Assembly: GCA_003140895.1 (NCBI GenBank)
Contig: PLLH01000118.1
Span: 11,494-75,493, forward strand
Direction of reading: 5' to 3'
Origin: Elusimicrobiota bacterium
GTDB taxonomy: Bacteria; Elusimicrobiota; Elusimicrobia; F11
Length of the DNA stretch: 64,000 nucleotides
Shown here: piece by piece, positions 13,401 to 51,876 of the stretch
How positions within the stretch are numbered: position 1 is the stretch's first letter
Layout: the number at the start of each line of letters is the position of its first letter
The notes under the pieces: model-generated
The model's input: only the letters and a program-made list of their open reading frames with translations
The model's database searches: none
Told to the model about the DNA's origin: nothing
Program-made: the position numbers and the translations under genes

Positions 13401-15687
13401 AAAATGCGCTCCCATAGGCTTGCGCCAAAACCCGTTGGCCATCGGGAGCCACCATCTCATCGGCGGTTTCCTGAATCATTTTCCGAAGAAACCCGAAATT
13501 GATTTCGTAATTTTTGAATCCCTTCTGTCTCGCAAAAACGGGATTCTTTATCTCAGCCAAGGAAAACCCCGAGAAACTATCGTTATAGAATAGTGACGCG
13601 GAGGTCTCTCTCCCCGATATCCGGCCCGAGCCGGGTCCGACATCGGGTTGGGAAGAATCCCTCATCATCGCCATCCCCACCACAAACGGCGCCATTGAAA
13701 GGAACGCGACTATTTCCTTTGCGTGGATCTTCATCCAATCCCAACCGAGGGCCATCCATTCGGGGTAAAGCAGGCTGACGAGGGCGCTTGTTGTGAGGAG
13801 GGCTGAGAGAGTGAGAGGGGTGCGGATGCTCTTCATCCCCCATTTTTCATCAATGGCAATCGTTAAAGATTTGGATGTGCGATTTGAGAGGGCCGTGATG
13901 TGGATAAGACCCGCTTTGGCGAGGTGGATTGTTGCGCGGGAGGCGATCCTCATTCTTCTTAAAACTTTCTCAACGTATTGTTGCGCGAACGGAATGCCGA
14001 TGACTTGTTTCATGACGCCTCGAGCGGCGAAGAAAAGGCCGGCTTTGGCGAACGCTGGGTTGGACACGGGCTCTTGGGCCAGGAAGAGTTTTTCCCCTTC
14101 GAAGAGCTTTTCAAGCGGGGTTTTCTCCTGAGTGAAGACGCTCAGATAGGTTGCCCCCGTTGATGAGTCCACTTTGGTCACTTTGGGAACAACGGTGATG
14201 GTGGTGAATCCGGCGTCCTGAGCCAGACGGTTGATCCCGCTTGAGTGATAGCCGCCGGTTACAAGAACCGCCACGTTGGTTTTATTCTCCCCCATGGTCC
14301 TTAAAAGGTTATTCGCCATCAAGGTGTCGCGCGCGTCGGCTTCGGAGTAAAATTTTTCAAACGGCGAAAAATTTGGTTGATGGTCTATGGACTGATACTC
14401 TTTCCACTCTTCTTTCGTGAGTCCAAAGTCGAGAAGTTTTCCAACAAGATACAGCCGCCGAGACTCTGCGACATCTTTTTTCTCGTCGTCCGTTCGGATC
14501 AACGACGCGTAGGTCGCGTCTTCTAAGTTGCTGATTTCTTGATGTAGCTTCTCCGCATCAATGGAGTCGGAGAGAAGGACATACTGGAGGTAATCGAACA
14601 TCGCTTTGTAATACGAAAGGTTGACGCCTTGTTTCTCGCACATGGTTTTTAAGGCTTGGTAGAAATCAGCGTGGTTGAGTTGGCCGAGACGGAACGCCAA
14701 CGTCAAATTAACGAGGGGTTGCGTTTGGTCGGCCGGCAGCTTCCTGAGGAGTTCCTCCAAAAGTAGAGAACGCTCCCGTTCAACGCGCGCGAAATCCAGC
14801 GACTTTTCAAGTTGGAGGGCGCGAAGGAAGTTGTTGAAATTGTGCCCGGGCACTTTTTTGTTATTGAACGAATTCAATAACTGCGCGTAGTCACCAAGTG
14901 AGAGGGTCCCCCTTTGGTACGCCTGGACGTTTCGGTCAAACGCTTTTAAATCGGGATTAAACCGGGTTTCTTTTTCTGCCGCCAGCGTTTGTTCAAGTTT
15001 TGCCAGTTTTTCTTTTTGGGTGGCGGTCTGCGGCGCGGATTCGCGGACGGCGTTGACGTTCGCTCCGTAGCGCGCGGCATCATCAATCCCGACGTACGGT
15101 GGCGGGGTGAGTTCGGAGACGAGAGCCGTATGAATCGGGCCTGAAATGGCGTTTTCGGCAAGCAGATGATCGGCTACCTCGCGGATGGTTTCTTTGTGAG
15201 GAAATTCTCTGAGGAGCGAAAGATCGAGCGGGGCGAAGGCTCCTTCGAGAGCCACCAGGTCCACCCGTTGTTTATTGATGAGCGTTTGGATTACGGCGGC
15301 GATGTTTTTCTGGGCTTCCCCATTCATGTGGATGTCTTGAACATGAATGATGATTTTCTGCTGAGAGCGGGACGCGGGCCTTGAAACAGAACGGATGCTC
15401 CCAAATTGAAGCGGGATGGCGCTTAATACATTTTTCAGGGAGAGGTCTTGCACATCTTTTGCCCATTTGTTGAAGTGGACATTCGCGGATAACGTGTCGG
15501 CAAAATTTGTTGGGAGCGAGGAATGGGTGAATCCCGCCACGGCGGGTAAACTCGCCAATTGGACGGATTTTTTTCGTTCCGTCCAGAAATCGGTTTCTGC
15601 TTTGTAGGCGAAGAGACAATTGGTGGAGAGAAGGGCCATGGCCAAGGCCATTGTGAGGCATCTTGAAAAGAAAGACGTATGCTTCAA
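1420..15687 (-). CDS. Giant (4755 aa) mosaic multidomain membrane protein. In order: signal peptide; Tiki/TraB/ChaN-like domain; transmembrane helices; repeated TM module; HExxH motif; phosphohistidine swivel plus PPDK_N nucleotide-binding (dikinase) module; second copy of the TM module; GNAT acetyltransferase domain; further TM clusters; second Tiki/TraB-like domain.
   Basis: A continuous 14,268-nt ORF without stops. TTG start at 15687 follows GGGAGA. N-terminus MKHTSFFSRCLTMALAMALLSTNCLFA is a signal peptide. Motifs seen in the translation: IIIHVQDIHMNGEAQ ... VLVTGGYHSSGINRL (ChaN/TraB-like, residues ~110-510); IFHELTHVVF (HExxH, residue 1253); IVTFINEGKTSHARARALADNIPLAVW (PEP-utilizer swivel, His ~2356); VVGNKPAQVNRL ... 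SVWTDEAFENRRKY ... VIEAVQGLGESLVGDD (PPDK_N, ~2440-2680); IIGAVAFRYGEGKESIAEIGVHPDYRRLGVGHRLM (GNAT, ~3115-3160); ALVVVRGGAHIFELEGL (second TraB-like GGxH motif, ~4330). There are multiple hydrophobic stretches. Confidence 0.8.
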   Translation of the reverse strand: MKHTSFFSRCLTMALAMALLSTNCLFAYKAETDFWTERKKSVQLASLPAVAGFTHSSLPTNFADTLSANVHFNKWAKDVQDLSLKNVLSAIPLQFGSIRSVSRPASRSQQKIIIHVQDIHMNGEAQKNIAAVIQTLINKQRVDLVALEGAFAPLDLSLLREFPHKETIREVADHLLAENAISGPIHTALVSELTPPPYVGIDDAARYGANVNAVRESAPQTATQKEKLAKLEQTLAAEKETRFNPDLKAFDRNVQAYQRGTLSLGDYAQLLNSFNNKKVPGHNFNNFLRALQLEKSLDFARVERERSLLLEELLRKLPADQTQPLVNLTLAFRLGQLNHADFYQALKTMCEKQGVNLSYYKAMFDYLQYVLLSDSIDAEKLHQEISNLEDATYASLIRTDDEKKDVAESRRLYLVGKLLDFGLTKEEWKEYQSIDHQPNFSPFEKFYSEADARDTLMANNLLRTMGENKTNVAVLVTGGYHSSGINRLAQDAGFTTITVVPKVTKVDSSTGATYLSVFTQEKTPLEKLFEGEKLFLAQEPVSNPAFAKAGLFFAARGVMKQVIGIPFAQQYVEKVLRRMRIASRATIHLAKAGLIHITALSNRTSKSLTIAIDEKWGMKSIRTPLTLSALLTTSALVSLLYPEWMALGWDWMKIHAKEIVAFLSMAPFVVGMAMMRDSSQPDVGPGSGRISGRETSASLFYNDSFSGFSLAEIKNPVFARQKGFKNYEINFGFLRKMIQETADEMVAPDGQRVLAQAYGSAFYLQDEEGYVPFSAVDDLDIQFSHFLDSDLELQFIERLKQKLISATNDLQITVQERTLIQTRKPLLIHPASGREILISFHKLVHETVQDKVESMLEFFRRPYVKPVERYLFIERLMGEMNRFHDMRARYIARGGLRKDEYGPALERLRSDLHQTLSSSDSKDELFRRIRSRILEINSFRQNISHPPENTINQQSKGIVTKLGTKERVERRIKSINGSGSQGTTPLSFIYLILTLPSIHDWISAKFSEETTHTLISTASLIWAAGEGALAAWLTNNYGIFAALAWLMPLFAAHIVFEWVHPNSDIRGPPLRWINLVRLFIFALYIAFPRFGFSPYFALPFHMPFDAHVMAARNPASQISADERIVREEVGHFIEVTGFPGDAESSKGRRLEKPLRRTVEVASSPWQAFRRLIVPQFLFWFVPLAIVFLPFSLIGWDFIPILKMIGFWSLLFGAKATVQTLRGANGVKLNFSKKVLVFKWRFPDESSLRANIFHELTHVVFPILAMGDRSNAFAASYFRTIRAAELGISTSHYGGSSAKTVREIIAEFPPSSWEKGFRKLAKRHESWFSRFTGRFKLEPGFSYEYGEYLANVVLELLNRDPEKHKKAYEIGGVLARRTGFEQAIATVLVKDPAYVVKGTRTDSKGDTLLDKKNEKSRRQQREISLSSPIPGLPPAEDLHRILQNEGVAVLFPQVGDPAYGLLMPWGSEDQLFYIGKFVGGGTHSPIENEGWKRKTHAWGTHLTNDHLQVIAQRLDVSPRQVLEALGIDPDAKRIVIVDPHYKYWHKSLLEETIHVLEGDHPADPITVRIREIINDFILLLFFPPNRRQNFKSGWTQWTPSERRALYNRYVRDPGVDPNTKLIEILSKLLEDIHKDAQIEIGGQNIPLLDVLIDWNKIEEKDKGLGSIHRWLLWMNTSRVLNRLLKTQRFHAYQPIFPHWGNQEDETPQKRVVPDEVIADSAEFFSLMIPYLRELREIIKETRLSAIKGDLAGVKRVFPRAKAITDDLNAMMSYATERVRAGKVVFERPPLVDHHIGNTAGVQGIGFMAEMIDDKSMGESILEILRETAIPESIDTLLEEVAAHPTLMGEQALLDNFADRQQAITKAKHAAVMAQLSATSMPESELSLFKWGPYRHYLAGLESLVFGVIPLGLPLTGLLWSLGVYGPTSLSLLSSVLVAVASTSLFILGLWVNKSFFVWLHTVTRGERETLSAEELKLISQNRAAAVNQLRKVFFISFGILSVLGLAIDWNPWLPLSIASVLLVLAHYTNDGLVQWGENYPGRAPPAVLQTLRKFFQILLLANLGRTELSLSNPKKTGPKHWNPKWPKPDYEKELVEHIFESTLPFSKEGNSIQGIGDIFILNHPVFDSAANTLRAIYYWYPDLAATILACVKGNHERWESTVQSGKMEMDLFGAIVKRGLALKNRNAPMTFKGDTYLVQYNLSGIAGLFGYLNPNNSKIILSAIDDETLLTKLGEQIADFLQKRYCPNDYAEKLRETMEEINTLSKKLQPEGKQASQIFAQPTSYAPQRVKKPTPEFAGTGVGKLQIIKGEEPSLSALKRVPSNSIVAMKFLPKSYVDIEGRFNGIVTFINEGKTSHARARALADNIPLAVWPGPELLRSLDGQMVVLTVTNRSASIRKATKSDLPRISKPRRIKVQLPSVTLEGDNYFLAPNDPEMVRPNVVGNKPAQVNRLSLHSPRLSDPRIHPEFAKGVGIPYRTFIHLLKKNGVYADFKKLIQSLTGAEGLQAAQTLKKIRRLIMGLNTNALAPRFWTTLEQAEGHPQWEKGTFVRDSTNAQDLEKYPGVGAGIYLTIPHIVGKRAFWPAIKKVMASVWTDEAFENRRKYQINETTVFPAAWLVPSLPADFSCVIHTSDVALNEPSHLVIEAVQGLGESLVGDDNRFAGSPTQIIWDKTRNRIVEKSPGNKKRCSVLSKTGGTKTIPVTKEFLKLPDANRLIRSLCEIGQQTEAQAKNPRDIEVVITADPQQPGHWTITIVQTRTLGRVNGSGSQGTVPLSFIYFILTLPAIHDWISAKFSEETTHTLISAASLIWAAGEGALAAWLTNNYGIFAALAWLIPLFAAHIVFEWVHPNSDIRGPPLRWINLVRLFIFALYPVLPYLGASPYWALISHLIFDASNMNYSDRTPITKHSEPPEMTRFRSADKEGKRKIFEDVLARSNTPNSLTLLTKFALRPDLDPHSLRQILERLVFFKEHPNWSYDEQGIRKERSSLWGPKPNEYERRSFFNATSDRARIARLPIEDLAYEVVDALPRRAELITDSISKILLDKTLELTQSQIVDYPAFRKKLIQDFLHIRPMMETNGSDMADILWDEFSSDRPWFNGRDVFSPAHDAQIETRVATIAGHIIGAVAFRYGEGKESIAEIGVHPDYRRLGVGHRLMENVKNSARYVNNEKIILAVPERSIENLPFFLSEGFQHASQPPHAKKKTIDGVETSVYPMVSRIDLANANKSKAMRSERPNKPGSRNGFALNELTVAMGLFSWAGITWMSPLLGLWIGSILMLGATVALPGLSDSNSAEKNSLSLKEFKRQIDGAQGDFPQFKNQLKEISKKIKGNPPQWAENIGNEIGKLLQEEKIILEDDALDWVQTVILFPKKRDKETIQSLVNLVLFLAGRYNVFLDCLEKPEGWDELASTIPTDPQERDAYFKHELAMMGKSVQRQFMERRSDPEEDLRGISSGTRYSFADVASQYYYLSLRFPDHNYSDLFVSLLESIPELSEKYAKTVFQARIRAAAKAATKGRVSKVSTPDIKIPSVFPAILSRAESDPAFANKLLDYRATSDALLLRRDMNKLWDAAETPPFLHDAENPGNSASLYLDIGSNFHGLFTLPEIKKGSRKVVFVTTKPEWARFLKKAALVIDVEDKVKVHFGPIAQLPTLIQPGSVGTLHLETRSKLNPIGLTPADVGVLTALMKPGGRIVVSDQGQGARSKPARIELAELLASFNLEEDKRMVALLQTELAGKEGRWALSFGHMGKFGGFLPGFSGYADRDKQIDADTLVVFTRPSETADSPADGAHLGGQTTKLLLLWATITGILAQGQNLWAQGRSMREIERSLNLGRGVGVAGNDLLPAFLLTLIISIPLCILGYLLLGVVISRYSHGKSLDRIYQKKDSFSFSATLLLIGYLATFLMVGTLSNSWMMGPINIATNILWFVTFVFFYFLYRFAKADYSLSWPVKTIVILSIVASAGLTNYFKQGWSPVSLASNFYASLVAVVTMGILLGLVLIYSIVSLRMGGKDVKEKRKRHNRQQKLTDEVDNFIQKAPHKKPGPRDGFTVFELTTAIALLSWPVITFLNPTLGFWIAGSVIFSIVIAILLKSLTYFIQNPQHDFIYYVLGPHGRKGDYDHMSSSVEEAIKDARKRGALSVAVLQESGGGPYNDFDRDMNVLGTRYRNNRESFRAEQSQSGLTDTEINALLNFAERWKDHAEFPDLIALLEDSNNASGMSAYVDWYNRTPNSAEPKNPLISRMNEHLKNISDIQTLEEIPTGDTVRFNFLSEIHYFLAIDHFRQGHLNQAMDEYASFSRDQAKMLELRAQALMNQIDDYKREHPSGALVVVRGGAHIFELEGLRDHGYRVAAYADQLPKDYNNPIHLAQSAALSGKGIEDKPALLTRAIIFACLGAVIIDHVNLSNHVLLLTGRLMDGRDLLTGKPLPGMSPFSMDDMRAIGDLLAQKGGPHLNYSEIDNLIIEWARHNHHWHSSYDKLFDPDWNASSSLPEIPLVRVETRPSVSRALYWVYNPLARSLSILYSKLLSGINIVWGILTPVGSFLLVKPLLSCMNRIGAVNNSNRKVPMSPTQIVLESLLKGTPINLGLGETLRTDPLRKNSGTLIFVDPSLEAHLEELVKSLDPHTPTTLVAQTNALAERLRGLVNPAFVSVVDGDQTGALQGGEWRLKTLETYFGENAVQFPIVARIIQAHGSMNIVSSQNAPAFNWNGLDSNSIFLQKETIYLLIDELLKALSARWAPDVQRSVDETSQTLKAA
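7072..7398 (-). repeat. Copy 2 of the 327-bp intragenic direct repeat (residues 2764-2872). It lies exactly 5364 bp (1788 codons) from copy 1, in the same frame.
   Basis: Near-identical DNA and peptide to 12436..12762. The alternative-frame ORFs 7017..7214 and 12315..12578 (both beginning MESLPRSRGS...) mirror the repeat. Confidence 0.9.
12436..12762 (-). repeat. Copy 1 of a 327-bp intragenic direct repeat (about 95% nucleotide identity) encoding a ~109-aa multi-TM module. It corresponds to residues 976-1084 of the giant protein.
   Basis: The DNA string atagagagcaaaaataaaaaggcgaac...gtcccttgagaacc recurs at 7072. The encoded peptide NGSGSQGTTPLSFIYLILTLPSIHDWISAKFSEETTHTLIS...RWINLVRLFIFALY is nearly identical in both copies. 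Confidence 0.9.
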
Positions 15688-27683: not shown

Positions 27684-30506
27684 GTGTCGAAGGCGGCCGC
27701 GATCAAGGACGAAAACAAAATGGTGTTTCTCGTCGTGAATTTTGTTATAGTTCTTTCTATGGGGAGGAAATCCTATCTATCAAGCGGGTGTATCTCTGTT
27801 CTTTTGCCGCTTCTCTTTATCCTGCCTTCTTTCTCCCTCGTCAAGGTTGAACCCGAATTAACGTCCGAAACGATTGAGTCTCTTCAGAACCTCCCTCACG
27901 GTATCGGCAACCAGTCTTCCCTATTAATAAGGACCAAACATGTGGATTCTGTTGGTTTTTCAGGGGGAGGGGCCTTTAGCCAATACGGTTACACGCATGT
28001 TGAAGGGGTGGCTCAGACCGGGTTATGGCTTCGCCTCATCAACAAAGGGTCGTCTTGGTCCAGTGGAAGCATCAGTTTCCGGAAGGCCTTTGATCTTTCC
28101 AGGTACAATTCCGCGGTGATTTGGGCCCGGTCCCTCCAGCCAGGGCAAAAAATCATGTTGATTCTTCAGGATTCCAACTGGGTTCAAGGCGATACGCCTC
28201 AAGCGATCTCAGCCCCCTTCCCATCTCAAGGTTTTCCCAAAAATCAAATCGTCCAATTGGTTATTCCCTTTAGCTCGATTAAGGCCAATAAAGGCATCGA
28301 TTATTCTTCCATTCAACGGGTGGGGTTTGAGTTCGGTCACAAGACGGCGGGGAACGCGTTGACGAATGAAATTGAAATTATTGGTGTGTCCTTTGTCTCT
28401 CAGACGGAAGAGTTAAGCGGGCCCGTGTTGGTAGGATTGAAAGGAACGGATTCTCAGAAAACGGTTCAAGCGGACGCGCCGCCTCCGGTGGTGGCGGCGC
28501 GAAAGGCGCCGGAAGCAAAACCTGTCATTAAGAAGGCGGAAGAGAACGTTAAAGTCATTCAGCTGGCAGCTCAAAAAAAAGAGCCGTCCGCGCCTCTTCC
28601 CCCCCCCGCTCACGAGAAGAACGTGGTTCGGACCATTCAGGCCCCGCTCCTTCAGAAACCCGTCGCGGCCAAAGCGCCGGTGGTTCAACAGACCGGGACA
28701 GTCAGCGGGATTAAACCGGTTGTGGCTCCTGCCGCCCCGGCGATTGCCGCCCCGGCGGGGGCCGCCCCGGCCATGAACGTCCTCCCGAAAAGCTTAAGGG
28801 TTGATGCTTTCACACCGGTTTTATTAGGCCTTAAAGACGATGTTGAAAAAATCCGGACCGCGGTTTCGTCCGCTGTGATGCAAATGGTCAACCGCATTCA
28901 TTGGCGGTTGGTGGGGATCGTTGCGGCCCTTCTCGCGGCGTTGTTAGGTCTTGTTTTCCTGGCGAGATTCCTTAAAACCTCTTTCTCTTCAGAGTGGACC
29001 TTGGAAAAAGTGATTCATGAAATTCGCTGGCCGCACACGTTGGACGGCGAGTCAAGCCACGCCCGGGAACAGAAAAAGTTTTGGAGGGAGTTGAGCCTGA
29101 TGGGCGTGAAACAAGGGTGGCTTTCCCCGTTCCAAGCGTCGTTTGATAAGCCCAGCTCCACCGCGGAGCCCTCCTCCGGATCCTTATCAACCGGTTCCGC
29201 CGAGCCGTCCCAAAAAGAATCATCGCTTGAGGAGTATCGAGGCGAGATGTTCCTTTATCGCCAACGTGGTTTTGCCGAGCAGGCTGGCGTTGAAATGATT
29301 CCGAGCTTCTGCTTTGTTCGAACGCTGTTTCATTACGAAACGTTTTTGGCGAACCCCAAACTTTACCTGATTAAACACGTGCCGGTGTCCGATCGGCATT
29401 TTAGCGACGAAGAGTTGCGAATCAAAAACATCGGATTTTTCCCCGTGTGGATCCCCCCCTTCTGGCAGAAGCAACATGAGCTGCCGGAGCGAGTCCTGGT
29501 TCCGTATGGAAAGCTCCCGGGCGTCATGGTGTCGAACGACAGCATTCAATTTAACTTGGCCACGCCGGAGCTGCGGACGTTCGCTATTTCTGTTTTGGAA
29601 CGATGCGCCGCCCGGGCTGACGCGGTCCGCATTGAAGGAGCGGCGGCGATGCTCAATTCCTTTATCCGCCGTTACTGGCGCGGGTCGATTCCGAGTATCC
29701 GCGCCGTTCAACGGACCGAGTTTTGGACGGACGTCATCGGCGCCGTGAAGGAAAAATTCCCCAAATTCGTGATGATCGCCGACGGGGCCGGTTCTGAAGG
29801 GCAAAAGCTTCTTGAACTGGGATTTGACCGGTTTGAGAACAATCACCTTCGGGATATCATCGTGAATCAGATCCGCCTGGAGTCCGTCGGTAATTTGGTC
29901 AACGCCCTGCAGGGAGAGGCGGTCCCCTTCCTGGATAAATCCATTTATAATTTGACGCCGCTCACATCCTCGGAACAATTCGTCGTCGAGATGTCCCGTA
30001 AACAAAATCTTCTTTGCTGTTACGTGTTGGCGCTCCTTCCCGGGAATATTTCAATCGACAACCGGATTCCTCATGACCTCGATGAGTTTTTGAAGATTGT
30101 CTCAAAATTGCCTGTCATCAAGCGGGGCCGTTTTTCACTCCTGCAAACATCCTCAACGTCTGTGATGGGGATCGCTCGGTGGGACCAACAGGTCCTCTCC
30201 GTTGCCGTCGTGAATTTCTCGATGACGCAGCAAGATCTCTCGGTTCGTTTTGACCCGGTCCAGAGCGGGTTTAGCGATAAAAAATTATATTTGTTCAGCG
30301 ATATGCTTCATGGCACTCCTTTTCGCCGGAACCTCCCCGCGAGTTCCTCCGACAAGCCGGCCATCACCGTTTTGGGGGAGGACTTGCGCGAATCAGGACT
30401 CACCTTGACCTTGCCCCCCCTCGGTATCAAAATGGTCTCCGTCCCTATGTCCAGTCCCATTCACGATGAACCTTCTTCAGAACTACGCCAAGTTCATAAA
30501 GCTTGA
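27684..30506 (+). CDS. Large membrane-anchored protein. In order: signal/TM; CBM-like beta-sandwich domain; Pro/Ala/Lys-rich linker; TM helix; divergent alpha-amylase-family-like (TIM-barrel) C-terminal domain.
   Basis: 940 aa. An alternative start is at MGRKSYLSS (27759). The linker is PPPVVAARKAPEAKP...VAPAAPAIAAPAGAAPA. TM helix WRLVGIVAALLAALLGLVFLARFL. C-domain motifs ADAVRIEGAAAM (resembles GH13 region II) and FENNHLRD (resembles region IV). The 3' end overlaps the mqnP-like gene by 41 nt. Confidence 0.55.
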   Translation: MSKAAAIKDENKMVFLVVNFVIVLSMGRKSYLSSGCISVLLPLLFILPSFSLVKVEPELTSETIESLQNLPHGIGNQSSLLIRTKHVDSVGFSGGGAFSQYGYTHVEGVAQTGLWLRLINKGSSWSSGSISFRKAFDLSRYNSAVIWARSLQPGQKIMLILQDSNWVQGDTPQAISAPFPSQGFPKNQIVQLVIPFSSIKANKGIDYSSIQRVGFEFGHKTAGNALTNEIEIIGVSFVSQTEELSGPVLVGLKGTDSQKTVQADAPPPVVAARKAPEAKPVIKKAEENVKVIQLAAQKKEPSAPLPPPAHEKNVVRTIQAPLLQKPVAAKAPVVQQTGTVSGIKPVVAPAAPAIAAPAGAAPAMNVLPKSLRVDAFTPVLLGLKDDVEKIRTAVSSAVMQMVNRIHWRLVGIVAALLAALLGLVFLARFLKTSFSSEWTLEKVIHEIRWPHTLDGESSHAREQKKFWRELSLMGVKQGWLSPFQASFDKPSSTAEPSSGSLSTGSAEPSQKESSLEEYRGEMFLYRQRGFAEQAGVEMIPSFCFVRTLFHYETFLANPKLYLIKHVPVSDRHFSDEELRIKNIGFFPVWIPPFWQKQHELPERVLVPYGKLPGVMVSNDSIQFNLATPELRTFAISVLERCAARADAVRIEGAAAMLNSFIRRYWRGSIPSIRAVQRTEFWTDVIGAVKEKFPKFVMIADGAGSEGQKLLELGFDRFENNHLRDIIVNQIRLESVGNLVNALQGEAVPFLDKSIYNLTPLTSSEQFVVEMSRKQNLLCCYVLALLPGNISIDNRIPHDLDEFLKIVSKLPVIKRGRFSLLQTSSTSVMGIARWDQQVLSVAVVNFSMTQQDLSVRFDPVQSGFSDKKLYLFSDMLHGTPFRRNLPASSSDKPAITVLGEDLRESGLTLTLPPLGIKMVSVPMSSPIHDEPSSELRQVHKA

Positions 30507-31308
30507 ACACACGCTGTTTTCGATTCCGCTGATCCTCTCTGGGGCTCTTTTAGCGGAGCGAGGGTGGCCTTCTCCGATGTCTCTCCTGTTGATTTTCCTC
30601 GCGGCGGGCGGAGCGCGGACGTTCGCTTTGTGCCTGAACCGGATTATCGACCGGAACATCGATCGACAGAATCCACGAACGAAAGACCGCCCGTTGGCCA
30701 ACGGGTCCATGTCGCTCCTTGAAGCGTGGCTCTTGGCCGCTGTTTCCATCATTATCTATTTGGCGGCGGCGAAATCATTGTCGGGATTTTGCTTAAAATA
30801 TTCATGGATTCCGCTTGTGGCGTTTACGATTTATCCCTATTTCAAACGGTTCACCAAGTGGAGCCATATCGGCCTTGGATTGGTTTGGTCTTTAATTCCG
30901 CTGTCGGGATTTTTTGCGGTTAAGCCGGCGTTTGATGGATTGGGCGCGGTTTTGATGCTGGCGCTCTTTAGCCTCTTTTGGCTGGCGGGATTCGATATTA
31001 TCTATTCCACGTTGGATGAGGATTTTGATCGGGAAGCCGGGCTCCATTCTCTCCCCTGCGCGTGGGGAAGCGAGCGGGCGCTTAAATTGTCGGGCACGTT
31101 TCATCTCATTTCGTTTATGGTTTTGGTGGTGCTTTATGGCGTGTGGTTGGGGGGTCCCGTGACGGTGATGTTCTTAGGTATCATCGGTATTCTTCTTTAT
31201 CTTGAACAGCAATTCGCCAATTACGTCGATTTGTCCTTCTTTAAAATGAACGTGGCCATCGGCTTCGCCGTTTTCTTTTTTATCTGGTCGGGGCTTAAAG
31301 GGGTATGA
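30466..31308 (+). CDS. UbiA-family prenyltransferase (MqnP-like 1,4-dihydroxy-6-naphthoate prenyltransferase).
   Basis: 280 aa polytopic protein with NRIIDRNIDRQNPRTKDRPL (first Asp-rich motif) and a DxxxD-like second motif. Confidence 0.8.
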   Translation: MNLLQNYAKFIKLEHTLFSIPLILSGALLAERGWPSPMSLLLIFLAAGGARTFALCLNRIIDRNIDRQNPRTKDRPLANGSMSLLEAWLLAAVSIIIYLAAAKSLSGFCLKYSWIPLVAFTIYPYFKRFTKWSHIGLGLVWSLIPLSGFFAVKPAFDGLGAVLMLALFSLFWLAGFDIIYSTLDEDFDREAGLHSLPCAWGSERALKLSGTFHLISFMVLVVLYGVWLGGPVTVMFLGIIGILLYLEQQFANYVDLSFFKMNVAIGFAVFFFIWSGLKGV

Positions 31309-31309
31309 C

Positions 31310-31858
31310 ATGAGAACAGTGGTTGGGTTAACGGGAGCCTCGGGCGCGGCGGTGGCCGTCGATTTTTTGAAACGTTGCCCCGGCGAGAAGTATCTGATTT
31401 TGTCCCGCTGGGGGAAGTCCGTTCTCTTTCAGGAAACAGGGCTCACGCCGGAAAATCTGGCTCCTTATGTGGATCACATTTTTTCGAATGACGATATGAA
31501 CGCGCCTTTCGCGTCCGGTTCCGTTTCATTCGATCAATATGTGATTCTCCCGTGTTCGCTCACAACTCTCGCTCGGTTGGCGGGCGGCATTGGAGAGAAT
31601 TTGATTTCCCGCGTCGGAGAGGTGGCTCTTAAAGAGAACCGCCGAATGCTCTTGGGCCTTCGGGAATCCCCTCTCTCCGCGATCGCTCTTGAAAACGCTC
31701 TCAAGTTGTCCCGCCTCGGCGTCACGATCATGCCGTTGTCGCCCGCTTTTTACTTGCAACCCAAATCCGTCGATCAAATGGTGTCTGATTTTGTAGATCA
31801 TATTTTTTCCGCGCTTCATCTGCCGTCGAAACAAGGGTGGCGAGAAGAATTGATTTAA
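31310..31858 (+). CDS. UbiX-family flavin prenyltransferase (MqnL-like).
   Basis: MRTVVGLTGASGAAVAVDFLK is the typical UbiX/Pad1 N-terminus. 182 aa. Confidence 0.85.
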   Translation: MRTVVGLTGASGAAVAVDFLKRCPGEKYLILSRWGKSVLFQETGLTPENLAPYVDHIFSNDDMNAPFASGSVSFDQYVILPCSLTTLARLAGGIGENLISRVGEVALKENRRMLLGLRESPLSAIALENALKLSRLGVTIMPLSPAFYLQPKSVDQMVSDFVDHIFSALHLPSKQGWREELI

Positions 31859-33633
31859 GAAGGATCGCCATGTCATTTTCCCATCTGCGCTCGTTTGTCG
31901 ATTTTCTTGAAGGAAAAGGAGACCTTTGCCGCGTTAAGGCGGAGGTGGATTCTGAATTGGAAGTCACGGAAATAGCCACCCGGGTTTTTCGAGAAAAAGG
32001 ACCGGCGCTCCTCTTTGAAAACGTCAAAGGATCGGCCTTCCCTCTTTTGATCAATGTTCTCGGAACGCCCAGCCGCATTGAGGCGGCGTTGGGGCGAGCT
32101 CCGGCGGAGGTGGGAGAGGCGCTCACGAAAGCCGCTGAGAGTTTTCTGCCTCCCACGCCTCGGAAAATTTGGGACGAGCGTTTCACTCTGTCTCGTTTTC
32201 TCTCCATGCGCCTTAAACCCAAACGAGCGGCCCCTGTTATGGCCCACCGGATTTCTCCGGCCGATTTAAGCCGCCTTCCTATTCTCAAATGCTGGCCCTT
32301 CGATGCAGGCCGGTTTATCACGTTTCCTCTGGTCGTCACAAAAAGTCCGGTCGACGGGCGCCAGAACCTGGGCGTGTATCGAATGCAGGCGTTCAACGCG
32401 CGGGAAACAGGCATGCATTGGCAGATTTCTCGCGGGGGCGGCGCTCATTATCAAGAAGCGGAACGCCGGAATGAACCGCTTCCCTTGGCAGCGGTTGTGG
32501 GAGCGGATCCGATTCTCCTCCTGGCGGGGGTGCTTCCTTTGCCGGAAGGCCTGGATGAGATGGCCTTCGCCGGATTTCTTCGAGGTCGCCAGACGGAAAC
32601 CGTTTCCTGCTGCGGCGGTCGCCTGGCGGTTCCGGCCGAAGCCGAGTTTTTGTTAGAGGGAGTTGTTCCCCCGAATGAACGCCGGACCGAAGGGCCGTTC
32701 GGCGATCACTTCGGACATTACTCGCAGGAGGCGCTGTTTCCCGTGTTTCACATCGAGCGGATTTATCACCGGGACAATCCCATATTCCCTGTCGCCGTGG
32801 TCGGCAAGCCGCCGCAGGAAGATCAGGTGATCGGAGACGCCATTCAAGAGATGTTGGTTCCCTTATTAAAACTCATGCACCCGGAGTTGGTGGATTTGTG
32901 GGCGTATCAGGAAGCGGGGTTCCATAATCTTCTGGTCGCCAGCGTGAACGAGCGGTTTGAAAAGGAAGCGCTTAAAACCGCCCTTTGGATTTTGGGAGAG
33001 GGTCAGCTGGCGATGACCAAATGCGTGGTGTTGGTGGGGCCCAAGGTCAATGTCCGCCGGTTTGACGAGGTGCTGCGGGCCCTTCGGGATCATTTTGATC
33101 CCAGCGAGGATTTCATCCTTCTTCCCGGGACGTCTCAGGACACCTTGGATTTCACGAGTTTCAAGATGAATCTCGGAAGTAAAATGATTTTGGACGCCAC
33201 GGTGCGCTCGCCAAAGCCCGCGCCGCGCCGGGAGGTTGATATCGACAAAATAAAACGGCTCGATTCCCGGATTTTGGGCGCTCGTTTGGTGGAAAACTCT
33301 CTTTTGGCCCTTCAGGTCAAGTCGGACGGCCGCTCTGTTTTAGAAGGCGTGTTGGCTTCCTCGCTCCTGGGGCCGGTGCCGATCGTGGCGGCGGTGAGCG
33401 CCGACATCCCCTTGAACGACCCCGTCCTTCTTATTTGGGGCCTTTTTACGCGATTTGACTGTGAACGAGACACGTTTTTTTCTCAGGCTTCTCTTCAAAA
33501 GGGGCATCCTGTCTATGGCGGGACGTTGGCCATCGATGCCACGTGGAAAGAGGGATATCCCGCGCCTCTGTCTATGTCGGAAGAGGTGGTCAAAAAAGTT
33601 GATCAGAGATGGAAGGAGTATCAAATTAAGTGA
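31837..33633 (+). CDS. UbiD-family (prFMN-dependent) decarboxylase (MqnM-like).
   Basis: 598 aa with the UbiD-like core (VVTKSPVDGRQNLGVYRMQ ... EGPFGDHFGHY). Overlaps the UbiX-like gene by 22 nt. Confidence 0.85.
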   Translation: MARRIDLRRIAMSFSHLRSFVDFLEGKGDLCRVKAEVDSELEVTEIATRVFREKGPALLFENVKGSAFPLLINVLGTPSRIEAALGRAPAEVGEALTKAAESFLPPTPRKIWDERFTLSRFLSMRLKPKRAAPVMAHRISPADLSRLPILKCWPFDAGRFITFPLVVTKSPVDGRQNLGVYRMQAFNARETGMHWQISRGGGAHYQEAERRNEPLPLAAVVGADPILLLAGVLPLPEGLDEMAFAGFLRGRQTETVSCCGGRLAVPAEAEFLLEGVVPPNERRTEGPFGDHFGHYSQEALFPVFHIERIYHRDNPIFPVAVVGKPPQEDQVIGDAIQEMLVPLLKLMHPELVDLWAYQEAGFHNLLVASVNERFEKEALKTALWILGEGQLAMTKCVVLVGPKVNVRRFDEVLRALRDHFDPSEDFILLPGTSQDTLDFTSFKMNLGSKMILDATVRSPKPAPRREVDIDKIKRLDSRILGARLVENSLLALQVKSDGRSVLEGVLASSLLGPVPIVAAVSADIPLNDPVLLIWGLFTRFDCERDTFFSQASLQKGHPVYGGTLAIDATWKEGYPAPLSMSEEVVKKVDQRWKEYQIK

Positions 33634-33670
33634 TAGTCTATATCCAACGCACTCCTACGGAGGTGCTCCC

Positions 33671-34774
33671 ATTCTGATCAAAGATTCCTCCCTATTCCCC
33701 CTCTGGAAAAAAGTCCAGGACGGCCAGCGCCTCACCTTTGAGGAGGGGCTGGTTCTTTTCTCCACCGATGATATTTTGGGTCTCGGTCACATGGCCAATT
33801 GGGTGAAGGAAAAAAAGACCGGAAACCACGGCTTCTTTGTCGTCAACCGCCAGATCAATCCGACCAATATCTGCGTTTTATCCTGCCGTTTTTGCGATTT
33901 CGCCAAGAAAAAGACCGATCCGGCCGCCACCGTTATGAGTGACGACGCCATTGTGGCCGCGTGCAGCCCCGAATTGACGGAAGTCCATATCGTGAGCGGT
34001 CTCTATAGCGGATGGCGGTTTGACCAGTATCTGAACGTCATTCACCTTATTAAAGCCAACTATCCCCATATTCAGGTCAAAGCGTACACGGCGGTGGAGA
34101 TTGAGTTTTTTGCCCGCATCGAAAAGATTTCCATCAAAGAGGTGTTGGAAAAAATGAAAGCGGCCGGAGTCGTGTGTATTCCGGGAGGTGGGGCGGAGGT
34201 GTTTAGCGAACGGGTTCGGAAAGCCTTGTTTCCCTTTAAGATTGGAGCCCGAACCTGGCTTGACGTGCATCGGACCGCTCACTCCATCGGCCTTAAATCG
34301 AACGCCACGCTGCTTTACGGGCATATGGAGACCGTTGAGGAGCGGGTGACTCATATGTTGAAACTCCGAGAACTGCAGGATGAGACGCACGGGTTTCTCT
34401 CATTTATTCCGTTGGCGTATCAACCGGGCACCACGAAGGTGGTGGAACGGCCGGCGTCGGCGCTGGACGATTTGAAAACAACGGCGGTCTCACGGCTCCT
34501 CTTGGATAATTTTGTTCACATCAAAGCGTATTGGGTGACGATGGGCGAGCAGATGGCCTCCGTCGCCCTTCATTTCGGCGCCGATGACATCGACGGGACG
34601 ATTGGCGAGGAAAAAATCATGCATGCGGCCCGGGCGTCGTCCCCGGTCGCGATGGCGCGCGAGAGGATGGTGAGTCTCATTCGGGAAGCCGGGCGCCACC
34701 CCATTGAGAGGGACGCCCTCTACAACGTTGTGGCCTCTTATGACGAAGCGGACCGCGTCGCGGTGATTCCATGA
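33671..34774 (+). CDS. Radical SAM menaquinone (futalosine pathway) enzyme, MqnC/MqnE family.
   Basis: NICVLSCRFCDF CxxxCxxC cluster motif and GGGAE region. The start is uncertain: no canonical start lies between the UbiD stop and the first in-frame ATG at 33791. The ORF track extends the frame back to 33455, inside the upstream gene. Confidence 0.75.
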   Translation: MLIKDSSLFPLWKKVQDGQRLTFEEGLVLFSTDDILGLGHMANWVKEKKTGNHGFFVVNRQINPTNICVLSCRFCDFAKKKTDPAATVMSDDAIVAACSPELTEVHIVSGLYSGWRFDQYLNVIHLIKANYPHIQVKAYTAVEIEFFARIEKISIKEVLEKMKAAGVVCIPGGGAEVFSERVRKALFPFKIGARTWLDVHRTAHSIGLKSNATLLYGHMETVEERVTHMLKLRELQDETHGFLSFIPLAYQPGTTKVVERPASALDDLKTTAVSRLLLDNFVHIKAYWVTMGEQMASVALHFGADDIDGTIGEEKIMHAARASSPVAMARERMVSLIREAGRHPIERDALYNVVASYDEADRVAVIP

Positions 34775-35559
34775 CGATTCCGATGAACGTGGGACGCATT
34801 ATCTACACGAATACAGAGCCTTTTTTCGCGAAGTGGCCCTATCATCTTTTTCCCGTCATGTCGGGGTTCCCCAGGCAGCTGGCTCAGGCCGCCAGAGACG
34901 GAGAGATTGTGGCGGGGGCGCTCCCCATCGTCGAATGTTGGAATTTAGAGAGAGAGTTTGATCCTCTTGGATCCTTTGGAATCGCCGCCAAAGGAGCCTG
35001 CCAGAGCGTTTTGCTCCTTTCAAAGCGGCCGATGTCGGATTTAAGACGCGTGACGGTGGGGTTAACGCGTGAGTCCTCCACATCCGTGATGCTGCTCGAT
35101 GTCTTAATGAAATACCGATACCAACAGATCGATATCACCTACAAGCGCGGTCTTCAGCCGAATGATGACGCCTGGCTCATGATCGGCGACCAAGCCCTCC
35201 GGGTCTGGGACAAGGGCGGACTCCCTCAGTGGCCGTATGTGACGGATCTGGCGGTGGAGTGGTGGAAATGGCAGCAGCTCCCCTTCGTTTTTGCCCTGTG
35301 GGTGTGCCTGCGCCGGATAGAATTCCAAATGAAAGAGAGGCTTCATCAAACATTGGCCAGTTCGTTGGAAGCGGGTCTGGCCTCTTTGCCGGAGATTGCC
35401 GCCCGGCAATGGCCCACTCTCCTGATTCCTTCCGAAAAAATCGTGCGCTACCTCCAAGGGTTTACTTACATGTTGGGAGAAGAGGAAATGGAATCCGCGC
35501 GGATATTTCGGCAGTTGGCTCACGGGCGGGTGAGTGAGCTGGCGTCGTCTCCGGTTTAA
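34771..35559 (+). CDS. mqnA: Chorismate dehydratase MqnA-like (MqnA/MqnD family).
   Basis: VGRIIYTNTEPFF matches the MqnA GRIxYLNxxP-type N-terminal motif. 262 aa. Coupled to the flanking rSAM genes. Confidence 0.7.
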   Translation: MTIPMNVGRIIYTNTEPFFAKWPYHLFPVMSGFPRQLAQAARDGEIVAGALPIVECWNLEREFDPLGSFGIAAKGACQSVLLLSKRPMSDLRRVTVGLTRESSTSVMLLDVLMKYRYQQIDITYKRGLQPNDDAWLMIGDQALRVWDKGGLPQWPYVTDLAVEWWKWQQLPFVFALWVCLRRIEFQMKERLHQTLASSLEAGLASLPEIAARQWPTLLIPSEKIVRYLQGFTYMLGEEEMESARIFRQLAHGRVSELASSPV

Positions 35560-35561
35560 TT

Positions 35562-36764
35562 ATGGGATCTCCTCTTTCCAATATCATCGAGAAGAAGATC
35601 CTGCGCCAGGAGCGCCTCTCTGTGGAGGAAGGCCTTTTCCTTCTTGACGACGCGCCCCTCCTGTGGCTGGGTCGTTTGGCATCGGAGGAACGGTTTCGGC
35701 GTTTCCCTCAAAAAGAAGTGACCTTTGTTTTGGATACCAATCCGAATTACACCAATGTGTGCGAAACGGCCTGCCAGTTTTGCGCTTTTTACCGCCATTC
35801 GGAAGACCCGGACGCGTACACGCTGAGCGTCGACGAGGTGATGGAAAAAATTGACAAGGCTGTTCAAAACGGCGTCACGACGGTCCTTCTTCAAGGAGGG
35901 CACAACGACGCCTTGCCGTTGGATTATTATCTCTCCTTGGTGCGTGAAACGAAGAAACGCTTTCCCACGGTCACGCCTCATTTCTTTTCCGCGTCTGAAA
36001 TTCAAATGATGTCGCGCGTGTCCGGATTGTCTGTCATCGATGTTCTTCGAAAACTTAAAGAAGCGGGGCAGACGTCCCTCCCCGGGGGCGGGGCTGAAAT
36101 CTTATCCGACCGCGTCAGAGACAAAATCTCCCCCCAAAAAGGCGGCCCCTCGGAGTGGTTGTCTGTTCACAGCGCGGCGCATGAACTGGGTTTCCTGTCG
36201 ACGGCCACGATGATGTACGGCCACGTGGAAGAATCGGAAGATGTGGCGGAGCATTGGGAAGCGGTTCGCCAATTGCAGGATGAGTCGAAAGCAAAAAAAA
36301 TGGGCGGTCACTTCACCGCGTTTGTTCCGTGGAGCTTTAAACCGGAAAACACGGCCCTCGAGCGGCGTTTCCCCCGCCGGGCCGGGACGATCCCTTATTT
36401 AAGAATGATCGCGGCCTCCCGCCTCTATTTGGACAATATCGACCATATTCAGGCGTCCTGGTTTTCAGAAGGCAAGAAAGTGGGGCAGACGGCGCTTCAA
36501 TTCGGGGCGGACGATTTTGGCGGGACTCTCTTTGAAGAGAACGTGCATGCCGAGGCGGGGTTCGTCAATACAACCACTCCCTCCGAAGTGATCACTCTTA
36601 TTCATGAAGCCGGATTTGACGCGGTACAGCGAACCACGGACTATCAGAGGATTAAAACAAACCAGCGCTCGGATTCCGGAAGTTCCATTGGGCCTTTGAC
36701 GGGCGCCGGCGACATGCCCATTCGGAAAAACACGGCCACCCCCATCGATTTCGTGTCGATGTAA
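35562..36764 (+). CDS. Radical SAM menaquinone (futalosine pathway) enzyme, MqnC/MqnE family, with a C-terminal extension.
   Basis: CETACQFCAF cluster motif. 400 aa. Paralogous to 33671..34774. Confidence 0.8.
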   Translation: MGSPLSNIIEKKILRQERLSVEEGLFLLDDAPLLWLGRLASEERFRRFPQKEVTFVLDTNPNYTNVCETACQFCAFYRHSEDPDAYTLSVDEVMEKIDKAVQNGVTTVLLQGGHNDALPLDYYLSLVRETKKRFPTVTPHFFSASEIQMMSRVSGLSVIDVLRKLKEAGQTSLPGGGAEILSDRVRDKISPQKGGPSEWLSVHSAAHELGFLSTATMMYGHVEESEDVAEHWEAVRQLQDESKAKKMGGHFTAFVPWSFKPENTALERRFPRRAGTIPYLRMIAASRLYLDNIDHIQASWFSEGKKVGQTALQFGADDFGGTLFEENVHAEAGFVNTTTPSEVITLIHEAGFDAVQRTTDYQRIKTNQRSDSGSSIGPLTGAGDMPIRKNTATPIDFVSM

Positions 36765-36776
36765 AAGAGAGGATTT

Positions 36777-37571
36777 TTACCTCTCTTTTTTCGCTTTGGT
36801 TTTATGCAGCCGTTTGAGCGCCTTCATTTTTTTGACATCCACCAAAATTGAATCATAAAGAATTTCTTTTTCCGGTGATTTTTCATAAATGTTGACTTGA
36901 AAACGGTTTTTGGGAGAGCGTGTTTCAGGGACATTCACCCGGACGCCCAGGGCCCCCCCCCGTTTTTTGACCTCCGACGTGAATTGCTGGATATCAGGCA
37001 GTTCGCTGACGATCTGAATGGCTTTGTCGATATCTTCCGGCGGGATGGGTCTGGCAAGGCCGATGGATTTCTTGATGCGTTTTATTTTGATCGTCCAGGG
37101 ACGAAGGTCAAATCGACGTGTGCCTTTATTCCAGTAGAAATCCTGACCCTCGCCGCAGTTCGCGCAGAATGAAATAGAAAATGCTTGGTCTCCCGGGTCG
37201 CCTTGTCCCGTTGTACCGGGGGCATGAATGTAAACCGGTTCTTTGACTTCAATGAAATAGAGCTTTTGATAGCGGTGCGGATCTTTTAACTCGGTCGCAA
37301 CCAACAGAAAATAGCGCGGTCCCCCGTCGGGAAGGTCGTAGAGGCCCGATATGGCGATATCATCTTGACCGTCTTTGTTGAAATCTCCCTGAGGCGCGAA
37401 TAACGGTTGTGGATCCTCGGGCCGAAGCGATGGAATGTCGTCCGAGTTGAGAACGCGCGGCAATTTTTCATGATCGAGAAGAAGATCCAACACGTTGTTG
37501 GGTTCGATTCCATAGAGGATCGGAGGGAACAAGACCAGGCAGAGCGACAAGAGGAAACCGTTCAATTTCAT
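36777..37571 (-). CDS. Secreted hypothetical protein.
   Basis: 264 aa with signal peptide MKLNGFLLSLCLVLFPPILYG and no recognisable catalytic motif. Confidence 0.5.
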   Translation of the reverse strand: MKLNGFLLSLCLVLFPPILYGIEPNNVLDLLLDHEKLPRVLNSDDIPSLRPEDPQPLFAPQGDFNKDGQDDIAISGLYDLPDGGPRYFLLVATELKDPHRYQKLYFIEVKEPVYIHAPGTTGQGDPGDQAFSISFCANCGEGQDFYWNKGTRRFDLRPWTIKIKRIKKSIGLARPIPPEDIDKAIQIVSELPDIQQFTSEVKKRGGALGVRVNVPETRSPKNRFQVNIYEKSPEKEILYDSILVDVKKMKALKRLHKTKAKKER

Positions 37572-44648: not shown

Positions 44649-45393
44649 ACCGGACTGTTTCAATCTCGTTTGTTTTGACCCATCCCTTCAGTCCTTGTTG
44701 AGGCACGCCGATTTGAATCCAATCCGGCCGTTGATTTAAAACGATCACTTTGCTTCCTTCCGGAACCGTGAATCCAACGGCGTAATCATTTCCCGGGCCG
44801 TTTCGCACTTCTCCCGGCGATTGTGTCACCACGGCCGCCGGCGTCTGTCCGAAGAAAAGGGAGAGGCCCAACCAAGAGGCGGTTAGAAGAAGAAAAAGCC
44901 CGGAGGTCCACAACGTCGCGGCCGGCCATAGTTCCCCTTCAATCCAACCCAATCTGAGCGCTCCGAACACACCGAAAAAAATCCAGAGAAGAAGGAGGAG
45001 TGTCGCGGCCAGCTCGTTTTCGGTGAACGTTGAAATGATGGATTGAATCAAGGGGTCTTTTTCATCTTTGAGATGAGAACGCGCCATGGCGAGATTAAAT
45101 TGGACATCGCCGTCCCTTGGAGAGAGCATGCGGGCCCGCTCATACCATAAAATCGCTTTCCCCCGTTCTCCTTTCCGATACGCGATATTCCCCAGGTTGT
45201 AGGCGAGCGCCGTTCCGCCGAACCCTTTTCGAACGAGCGTGGCATATATCTCCTGGGCTTTGTCCAAATCACCTTTCTCCAGGAGGGCGTTGGCTTGATT
45301 GAATTGCTCTTGTTCGATGAGGGCCGCTTTTGGAACGGCCGGAAGAAAAAGGGCCAGGAGGGCGCCGAGAAGAAGGGTCCGAGATGATGTCAT
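44626..45393 (-). CDS. BatE-like protein (TPR repeats, TM helices, C-terminal SH3 domain).
   Basis: Signal peptide, TPR region (AYNLGNIAYRKGERGKAILWYERA), two TM helices, and SH3-like GWVKTNEIE. It is the last gene of the Bat operon. Confidence 0.6.
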   Translation of the reverse strand: MTSSRTLLLGALLALFLPAVPKAALIEQEQFNQANALLEKGDLDKAQEIYATLVRKGFGGTALAYNLGNIAYRKGERGKAILWYERARMLSPRDGDVQFNLAMARSHLKDEKDPLIQSIISTFTENELAATLLLLLWIFFGVFGALRLGWIEGELWPAATLWTSGLFLLLTASWLGLSLFFGQTPAAVVTQSPGEVRNGPGNDYAVGFTVPEGSKVIVLNQRPDWIQIGVPQQGLKGWVKTNEIETVRFTSASSS

Positions 45394-51850: not shown

Positions 51851-51876
51851 GAAAGCCTCTTTACGCCGGACTCGAA

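Follow-up and report, generated by a model that had tools for sequence, protein, structure and literature searches.

GH13 glycoside hydrolases work by a double displacement that needs an Asp nucleophile, a Glu acid/base and an Asp stabiliser. To our knowledge, catalytically dead glycosidase folds that have taken on new jobs are known mainly from eukaryotes (4F2hc and rBAT). 4F2hc is without catalytic residues, and no glycosidase activity has been demonstrated for the GH13 fold of the SLC3 proteins (PMC8537225). Within subfamily GH13_48 (AmyB of Thermotoga neapolitana, PDB 4GKL; Lactobacillus plantarum 3DHU), some members have already been noted to lack catalytic residues (PMC11239784). The late, membrane-associated steps of the futalosine pathway to menaquinone (MqnP, MqnL and MqnM) have been predicted by comparative genomics (PMC4746308). 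As a case that touches all of these systems, we describe an open reading frame, here called X, in a window of 64,000 nucleotides (the whole stretch of DNA analysed; contig PLLH01000118.1, positions 11,494 to 75,493, assembly GCA_003140895.1) from an Elusimicrobiota bacterium.

X is a real homologue of the GH13 superfamily, by significant sequence homology and by fold, and from its sequence it is best described as derived from a GH13_48-like lineage rather than as a functional GH13_48 member. It is also the first cistron of a futalosine menaquinone operon, and its 3' end overlaps mqnP. We hold the structural and evolutionary description with high confidence. The broader statement, that X is a GH13 pseudoenzyme re-used as a membrane accessory of late menaquinone synthesis, could in our judgement equally well be right or wrong. 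The parts of X are as follows:

27684..30506, plus strand: maximal open reading frame of X, 940 amino acids from a GTG
27759..27848, plus strand: predicted Sec signal peptide MGRKSYLSSGCISVLLPLLFILPSFSLVKV, placed by a hydropathy peak and by homologue N-termini
27861..28439, plus strand: predicted periplasmic jelly-roll beta-sandwich domain, residues ~60-252, with a CBM11/CIA30/CBM8-like fold
28440..28883, plus strand: low-complexity linker rich in Ala, Val, Pro and Lys by composition, residues ~253-400
28908..28973, plus strand: single internal transmembrane helix, residues 409-430, Kyte-Doolittle peak 2.88
29010..30119, plus strand: degenerate GH13 (beta/alpha)8 barrel with a domain-B-like insertion, residues ~443-812
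29151-29225, plus strand: disordered Ser-rich insert in the barrel, residues 490-514, from the AlphaFold2 model
30129..30446, plus strand: GH13 domain C, an all-beta sandwich, residues ~816-921, from AlphaFold2 strands

The homology is not visible in routine searches. X has no Pfam, NCBIfam or PDB sequence match even at E <= 1 to 10; the GH13 barrel family PF00128 gives no match to X at E <= 1, or to any of 13 X family members at E <= 0.1. A full-length word-index search returned X alone, because the low-complexity linker swamped the candidate list. With the region after the transmembrane helix as query, the search found 12 homologues, which share 39-48% identity and carry no Pfam domain, and also two distant PF00128 proteins. 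An exhaustive phmmer search with X over 1.84 billion representative proteins gives three tiers. The first, about 28 proteins of 770-950 amino acids at E < 1e-30, is the X family proper. The second consists of about 10 intermediates of ~800 amino acids at 22-30% identity, and the third of about 170 soluble proteins of ~490 amino acids. Both of these carry PF00128 above threshold, and X reaches the PF00128-carrying proteins with E-values from 2e-29 to 1e-10; most of the intermediates also have weak, sub-threshold matches to Malt_amylase_C.

The intermediates are built like X, and the intact bitopic GH13_48-like proteins (P0036, P0039, P0040, P0042, P0043 and P0046, with the locus L010:7427-10024) are referred to below as the intact cousins. 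They are uncharacterised, and their nearest solved sequence relative is 4GKL, the maltogenic amylase AmyB (E 5e-25). A profile of the X family aligns with them by hhalign at a probability of 100% and E 3.9e-60 over 685 columns, the N-terminal domain included. Their layout is that of X: a signal peptide, a beta-sandwich containing 'FE.G..T.GN', a linker, a transmembrane helix, a basic stretch, a GH13 barrel and domain C. Unlike X, they keep the catalytic motifs DFVPNH, GVRCDMA, FIAE(S/T)YW and F(L/I)ENHDE and lie above the PF00128 threshold. A third homologue search, with a mixed profile, did not recover the intact cousins; one full-length cousin locus (L010) came from a metagenome scan.

The open reading frame itself was borne out at its full 940 amino acids from the GTG, but the true start is probably the ATG at 27759 (Met26), which gives 915 amino acids. 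This start is favoured because the public gene call (P0001) is also 915 amino acids long, because Met26 yields a canonical, homologue-like signal peptide, and because the GGAGG before the GTG abuts it with zero spacer. The signal peptide has a basic n-region and a hydrophobic core and ends just before a conserved 'EP.L(S/T)', as in the homologues. In the intergenic region upstream of X, Rfam finds nothing credible. The missing family matches and the loss of all catalytic residues would suit a decaying pseudogene or an annotation artefact. That explanation is effectively refuted by the conservation data, and we give it next to no weight: about 28 cluster representatives hold intact frames of 770-950 amino acids at 35-54% mutual identity, with dozens of invariant positions and confident AlphaFold2 models. 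The ~60 invariant positions fall mostly in domain B and at the strand ends, and judged by this pattern the family is under clear purifying selection. It is also very small; it occurs in 3 of ~185,000 species-level genomes, all three of them metagenome-assembled genomes of uncultured Elusimicrobia, and one member at NCBI is annotated 'hypothetical protein [Elusimicrobia bacterium]'.

The AlphaFold2 model of the C-terminal part of X (predicted local distance difference test score, pLDDT, 82; predicted template modelling score, pTM, 0.82) shows eight beta/alpha units followed by a C-terminal beta-sandwich, with the Ser-rich insert as its sole disordered part. It thus has the elements of the GH13 fold, namely the (beta/alpha)8 barrel, a domain B inserted after beta3 and an all-beta domain C. 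The structure prediction proposed as a check in the earlier note on this sequence therefore returns a GH13 barrel and not a non-TIM-barrel fold. Domain C is supported further by weak Malt_amylase_C matches in 8 of 13 family members, and the family profile searched against PDB sequences gives a marginal match to domain C of trehalose synthase, domain C being the only part matched.

The model of the N-terminal domain (pLDDT 84, pTM 0.79) is a jelly-roll beta-sandwich of the CBM11/CIA30, galactose-binding-domain-like type. No Pfam family of carbohydrate-binding modules (CBMs) or of CIA30 matches it even at E <= 1, and its identity with CBM11, CBM8 and CBM30 modules and with the CIA30 complex-I assembly-factor domain is merely 8-16%. 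CBMs and CIA30 score equally well against it, so the fold does not tell which ligand is bound. The architecture read earlier from the letters, with an N-terminal beta-sandwich, a linker, a single transmembrane helix and a GH13-like domain, holds in this form, 'CBM-like' standing for a fold without a family match. The linker (19% Ala, 14% Val, 13% Pro and 11% Lys over residues 250-400) varies in length and sequence between homologues; we considered a genuine tandem repeat here and rejected it, as there is just a trivial 15-bp x 2.8 repeat.

Nearly all family members begin with what looks like a signal peptide. In 19 of 21 members, the stretch of 15 residues behind the transmembrane helix has a net charge of +3 to +7, whereas the charge before the helix lies between -3 and +3; the intact cousins have the same charge pattern. 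Because of the signal peptide and this positive-inside pattern, we infer a type-I bitopic protein of the inner membrane, with the N-terminal domain and linker predicted to be periplasmic and the GH13-like domain cytoplasmic. Strand beta1 of the barrel begins ~12 residues past the membrane.

For the active site, X was aligned with the intact cousins using MAFFT, residues were counted over 25 X family members, and conservation was placed on the secondary-structure elements of the model. The positions of interest are:

29295..29321, plus strand: region I equivalent, 'MIPSFCFVR' against 'VVDFVPNH' in the cousins; Asp is replaced by Ser541, Asn by Val545 and His by Arg546
29439..29471, plus strand: near-invariant aromatic motif FPVWIPPFWQK, residues 586-596, in the domain-B region; 'FPYRTPSYPEG' in the cousins
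29616..29651, plus strand: region II equivalent ADAVRIEGAAAM, residues 645-656, against 'DGVRCDMAML' in the cousins; X reads DAVRIEGAAAM
29766..29789, plus strand: region III equivalent, 'FVMIADGA' against FIAE(S/T)YW in the cousins; the acid/base Glu is replaced by Asp700 (D in 23 of 25 members)
29832..29855, plus strand: 'FENNHLRD', residues 717-724, at the end of beta6 and start of alpha6; aligns with 'TYNKPLYE' in the cousins
29940..29966, plus strand: true region IV equivalent, 'SIYNLTPLT' (753-761) against 'SVHFLENHD' in the cousins; His is replaced by Leu760 and the transition-state Asp by Thr761

In place of the GH13 triad of Asp, Glu and Asp, X therefore has Glu651, Asp700 and Thr761. 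At the nucleophile position, Glu is found in 21 of 25 members and Gln in the other 4; at the transition-state position, there is a carboxylate in none of the 14 members aligned. Where GH13 proteins conserve NH at the end of region I, GxR in region II and NHD at the end of region IV, X has Val545-Arg546, only Arg649 and Pro759-Leu760-Thr761. Arg649 is retained, as (A/G)-V-R, in 24 of 25 members, Ile650 replaces the Cys of GH13_48, and the residue directly after position 651 is a conserved Gly. Glu718, within FENNHLRD, is invariant (25/25). Relative to the cousins, ~35 residues after beta2 and ~20 after beta8 have been deleted, and the FPVWIPPFWQK motif, which lies in a confident part of the model (pLDDT ~90), has been gained.

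The earlier note had picked out look-alikes of regions II and IV and a Glu at the nucleophile position. Its region II aligns with the true region II of the intact relatives, with Glu651 at the position of the Asp, but 'FENNHLRD' was mistaken for region IV, since it pairs with a segment after beta6. The Asp to Glu change stands, and the degeneracy is wider than was claimed: the acid/base Glu has become Asp700, and regions I and IV are lost. The check it suggested, conservation of the triad positions in homologues, shows that the canonical triad is not kept (position 651, E 21 and Q 4; position 700, D 23 of 25). With the whole catalytic machinery gone and Gln at the nucleophile position in part of the family, its label of 'glycan enzyme' becomes unlikely.

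Given the GH13 mechanism and the replaced triad, the sequence indicates that X has most likely lost the ability to cleave or transfer alpha-glucosidic bonds. Conservation is strongest around the former substrate cleft, formed by the C-terminal strand ends of the barrel (Arg649, Asp700, Glu718 and Asp619) and by the domain-B region with the new FPVWIPPFWQK motif. This points to a retained binding function rather than a purely structural scaffold, and suggests that the cleft has been re-used as a binding surface. It could also be taken to mean that X retains enzymatic activity through a new active site in the remodelled cleft (Arg649, Glu651, Asp700, Glu718 and Asp619) that acts on a cytoplasmic glycoside, either an alpha-glucan or some other sugar-like substrate, with the membrane tether merely localising the protein. 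Conserved carboxylates at the ends of strands beta4, beta5 and beta6 would fit such an enzyme, as would the invariance of Asp619, the equivalent of a residue (Asp135 of AmyB) listed among the hallmarks of GH13_48 (PMC11239784), the conservation of domain B and the cleft, and the activity of BmaN1-type GH13 amylases despite an aberrant triad (PMC5347038). Set against this, the Gln variants make a conserved nucleophile at position 651 untenable, and one of the four members that have Gln, P0006, still precedes mqnP. With a conserved Gly after 651, X has no counterpart of the shifted nucleophile of BmaN1; Thr, Leu and Arg stand in place of the transition-state Asp and the two conserved His, with no carboxylate at that Asp position in the 14 members aligned; and PF00128 is undetectable in 13 of 13 members tested. 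On balance, we find a new active site improbable.

The second line of evidence is the genomic position of X. The menaquinone genes in the window are:

30466..30506, plus strand: 41-nt dual-coding overlap of the X tail (…SELRQVHKA*) and the MqnP N-terminus MNLLQNYAKFIKL, mqnP being in frame +1 relative to X
30466-31308, plus strand: MqnP/UbiA, co-directional and downstream of X
31310-31858, plus strand: UbiX/MqnM, downstream futalosine gene
31837-33633, plus strand: UbiD/MqnL, TIGR03701 at 475 bits, just below the 495.9-bit cut-off
33455-34774, plus strand: MqnE, maximal open reading frame from TTG 33455
34771-35559, plus strand: MqnA, downstream futalosine gene
35562-36764, plus strand: MqnC, downstream futalosine gene
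54254-55111, minus strand: second PF02621 (MqnA/MqnD family) gene, E 2e-71, apart from the mqn operon and adjoining an M17 aminopeptidase gene; probably MqnD

The junction of X with mqnP, which starts at 30466, reads cleanly in both frames. The overlap of 41 nt with an mqnP-like gene reported earlier and the pairing with menaquinone genes proved correct. In all ten contexts with a readable 3' flank (the window, the contigs of P0004, P0007, P0019, P0013, P0009, P0011, P0016 and P0006 (L005), and L004), mqnP lies directly downstream of X, and in nine of them it overlaps X by ~32-41 nt. Eight junctions were read directly. In seven of them the overlap measures 35-41 nt, mqnP is always in frame +1, and its ATG is not preceded by a Shine-Dalgarno-like motif. 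The overlaps in L004 and L005, ~32 and ~38 nt, are estimates from tblastn coordinates. In P0013, the most divergent member, there is no overlap but a 35-nt gap with a GAGGAA motif before mqnP. The overlap shows that the two genes are co-transcribed and probably coupled in translation.

A C-terminal tail of X with the pattern (I/V)R(Q/E/K)L(H/Y)(K/Q)(A/T)* occurs only in members that overlap mqnP (read at 30466-30506 of the window and in L001, L007, L008, L091, L092 and L093) and is absent from the gapped P0013, while the MqnP N-terminus 'KYASFIKLEH' is conserved with or without the overlap. For this reason, the tail is probably a by-product of dual coding rather than a functional motif of X. 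Further along the operon, the maximal MqnE frame overlaps the UbiD gene by ~180 nt (33455-33633), but its TIGR03700 match starts at residue 85, and MqnE is called at 364-386 amino acids on homologous contigs; its real start is probably well downstream of 33455, making the overlap with UbiD much shorter than ~180 nt or absent. Directly past mqnC, on the opposite strand, lies a conserved gene of ~260 amino acids without a Pfam match (36777-37571, minus strand), followed by two small open reading frames (~55 and ~125 amino acids); it is present in the four homologous contigs that reach past mqnC (L001, L007, L008 and L093).

Against the known Mqn enzyme families (MqnA-E and MqnP/L/M), X has no Pfam or NCBIfam match, and its sole link to the pathway is operon position. 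One way to give it a place in the pathway would be as a replacement for a missing enzyme acting on ribosyl intermediates, such as a nucleosidase of the MqnB/MTAN type. Futalosine intermediates contain ribose, no MqnB or MTAN gene is seen in the operon or the rest of the 64-kb window, and the domain is predicted to be cytoplasmic with a conserved polar cleft. But MTAN is usually encoded elsewhere in the genome, so that its absence from 64 kb is uninformative; an enzyme of a soluble pathway needs no signal peptide, periplasmic domain or membrane anchor; residue 651, the catalytic candidate, is Glu in some members and Gln in others; and MqnD is not missing, given the second PF02621 gene. X as a substitute for MqnD was rejected on this last ground, and a replacement enzyme of any such kind is very improbable.

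Its place at the head of the operon and its probable translational coupling to mqnP lead us to propose instead that X serves as an accessory to MqnP. X descends from rare membrane-anchored GH13_48-like alpha-glucan enzymes of the same layout, and in an Elusimicrobia lineage it has kept the GH13 fold and lost the catalytic machinery. On this view, X would be a non-catalytic subunit, held by its membrane anchor on the cytoplasmic side, that helps the polytopic prenyltransferase MqnP by stabilising, positioning or regulating it; it might also dock the soluble MqnL/MqnM decarboxylase. On the other side, the periplasmic domain would serve as an anchor to an envelope glycan or as a sensor of one. 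Both the partnership with MqnP, whether physical or functional, and any sensing role are inferred, and we put forward the menaquinone-accessory function tentatively, at somewhat less than an even chance. A more elaborate version seems rather unlikely: X and MqnP would form a stoichiometric complex and metabolon scaffold, in which the Trp/Phe-rich FPVWIPPFWQK cleft holds the prenylated naphthoate or passes it on to MqnL/MqnM, and the periplasmic domain on its long linker couples the process to the state of the envelope.

The accessory proposal has to be weighed against a simpler one, that X is an envelope or glycan membrane protein (e.g. a periplasmic glycan-binding anchor or sensor) unrelated to menaquinone, sharing nothing with the mqn genes except a transcript. 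The same architecture is found in intact cousins that are not linked to mqn genes. The L010 member, the sole one with usable context, has glycine-cleavage, lipoate-ligase, TPR and QueG genes as neighbours and no MqnP or other mqn gene within 8 kb. In X, the periplasmic domain resembles a CBM, and the transmembrane segment shows no sequence conservation within the family. The block carB-carA-purA-HAD followed by X-mqn is syntenic on most contigs, as a single lineage predicts, and block-wide synteny alone would indicate just that. Other features of the junction argue for a closer tie. All ten contexts preserve it, with protein identity falling as low as 39%; nine have the ~32-41 nt overlap, which seven of the directly read junctions show in one and the same frame; and the junction survives a break in upstream synteny: on the P0016 contig, four unrelated genes lie between HAD and X, yet the X-mqnP overlap is unchanged. 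The linkage to mqn is also confined to the degenerate branch, with n=1 for the intact branch. Taking these together, we consider a mere passenger unlikely, though a stronger contender than a new active site.

Several points tell against the accessory proposal. An overlap is not proof of shared function, and adjacency by itself says little, since every family member belongs to a single narrow lineage in which synteny is broadly conserved; the context of the intact branch rests on one cousin (L010). The lack of conservation in the transmembrane sequence argues against a tight helix-helix interface of the 4F2hc-LAT1 kind; together with the narrow taxonomic range, this is where the model is weakest. 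Finally, the conserved acidic residues of the cleft (Glu/Gln651, Asp700 and Glu718) leave room for new chemistry, and BmaN1 shows that an aberrant triad need not abolish the activity of a GH13 enzyme (PMC5347038).

The earlier note also saw a recurring alpha-glucan flavour in the region, from a CBM48-like gene and a dikinase resembling glucan-water dikinase:

61958-62548, minus strand: 196-amino-acid protein with a C-terminal CBM48/AMPK-CBM glycogen-binding module, E 1e-12
1420-15687, minus strand: giant open reading frame of 4755 amino acids, with PPDK_N at residues 2468-2762 (E 2e-20) and a GNAT acetyltransferase domain at ~3083-3197

Both domains are real, but PPDK_N occurs in many enzymes that use phosphoenolpyruvate and is not diagnostic of glucan-water dikinase. 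The giant frame lies >12 kb and the CBM48 gene >30 kb away from X, on the other strand and in unrelated operons, so the idea of an alpha-glucan neighbourhood was rejected: such distant genes give no functional link to X. The CBM48 gene is directly upstream of a TonB-dependent receptor gene (60053-61942, minus strand), with which it may be co-transcribed. In the giant frame, PPDK_N and GNAT are the only Pfam matches, leaving >85% of the protein without a family assignment. The window also contains a complete Bat/MoxR-type aerotolerance-like cluster (45390-52863, minus strand) of a MoxR AAA ATPase, DUF58, BatA-VWA, VWA-TPR and BatD, with a TPR-SH3 protein of the same cluster at 44626-45393. At the window edge, there is a fragment of a phage-integrase-family (tyrosine recombinase) gene (63398-63967, minus strand).

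If the proposed role is true, X would be a bacterial case of a re-used dead glycosidase fold, and one with a clear evolutionary series that runs from soluble GH13_48 enzymes through rare membrane-anchored intact forms to a degenerate branch in a quinone operon. In the literature searched, we found no accessory factor described for the MqnP, MqnL and MqnM steps; a conserved, translationally coupled extra cistron thus makes X a concrete candidate for one. For the time being, this has limited practical value, as the organisms are uncultured, the family is tiny (~28 clusters) and the function is inferred. Degenerate GH13 proteins as such are already known, from 4F2hc and from some GH13_48 members. 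Three features appear undescribed: the type-I bitopic architecture, with its CBM-like domain in the periplasm and its GH13 domain in the cytoplasm, which the intact parents share; the thoroughly remodelled yet conserved GH13 cleft; and the invariant, translationally coupled position before mqnP.

Compared with GH13_48, X retains the barrel, domains B and C and the region II Arg. The hallmarks of the subfamily are a Cys before the nucleophile, GQ at the end of conserved sequence region (CSR) VII, L-[DN] at the end of CSR-V and, just before CSR-V, the Asp135 of AmyB (PMC11239784). The intact cousins have all four (GVRCD, HQGQ, AQLD and the Asp135 equivalent). In X, the Cys has become Ile650 and the GQ Asp-Asn, Phe623-Asn624 at the end of CSR-V is a remnant of L-[DN], and Asp619 is kept. 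X differs from the subfamily further in the replacement of three catalytic residues and both conserved His, the deletions after beta2 and beta8, the new FPVWIPPFWQK motif and the absence of a detectable PF00128. It is also membrane-anchored with a periplasmic N-terminal domain, an architecture absent from the subfamily description (PMC11239784, in which 'transmembrane' has 0 occurrences).

Like X, BmaN1 is a GH13 protein in which the canonical nucleophile and transition-state residues have been replaced (PMC5347038). Unlike X, it keeps the acid/base Glu, has an Asp one position past the nucleophile site and is active; in X, that next position is Gly, the acid/base Glu has become Asp, and the nucleophile site is variable, holding either Glu or Gln.

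A possible parallel in principle is offered by the SLC3 heavy chains 4F2hc (CD98hc) and rBAT, dead GH13-like proteins that partner the polytopic SLC7 transporters as accessory subunits. In both cases, a single transmembrane helix is followed by a GH13-fold domain, which in X is inactive judging by its residues. The SLC3 proteins are eukaryotic and type II, with the GH13-like domain outside the cell and a disulfide link to their SLC7 partners. X does not share that topology, as its signal peptide and positive-inside pattern place the GH13-like domain in the cytoplasm; it has an extra exported N-terminal domain, and its putative partner is a UbiA-family prenyltransferase. X comes from a different GH13 subfamily and has an independent origin. 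The resemblance would be an analogy of mechanism and not family membership.

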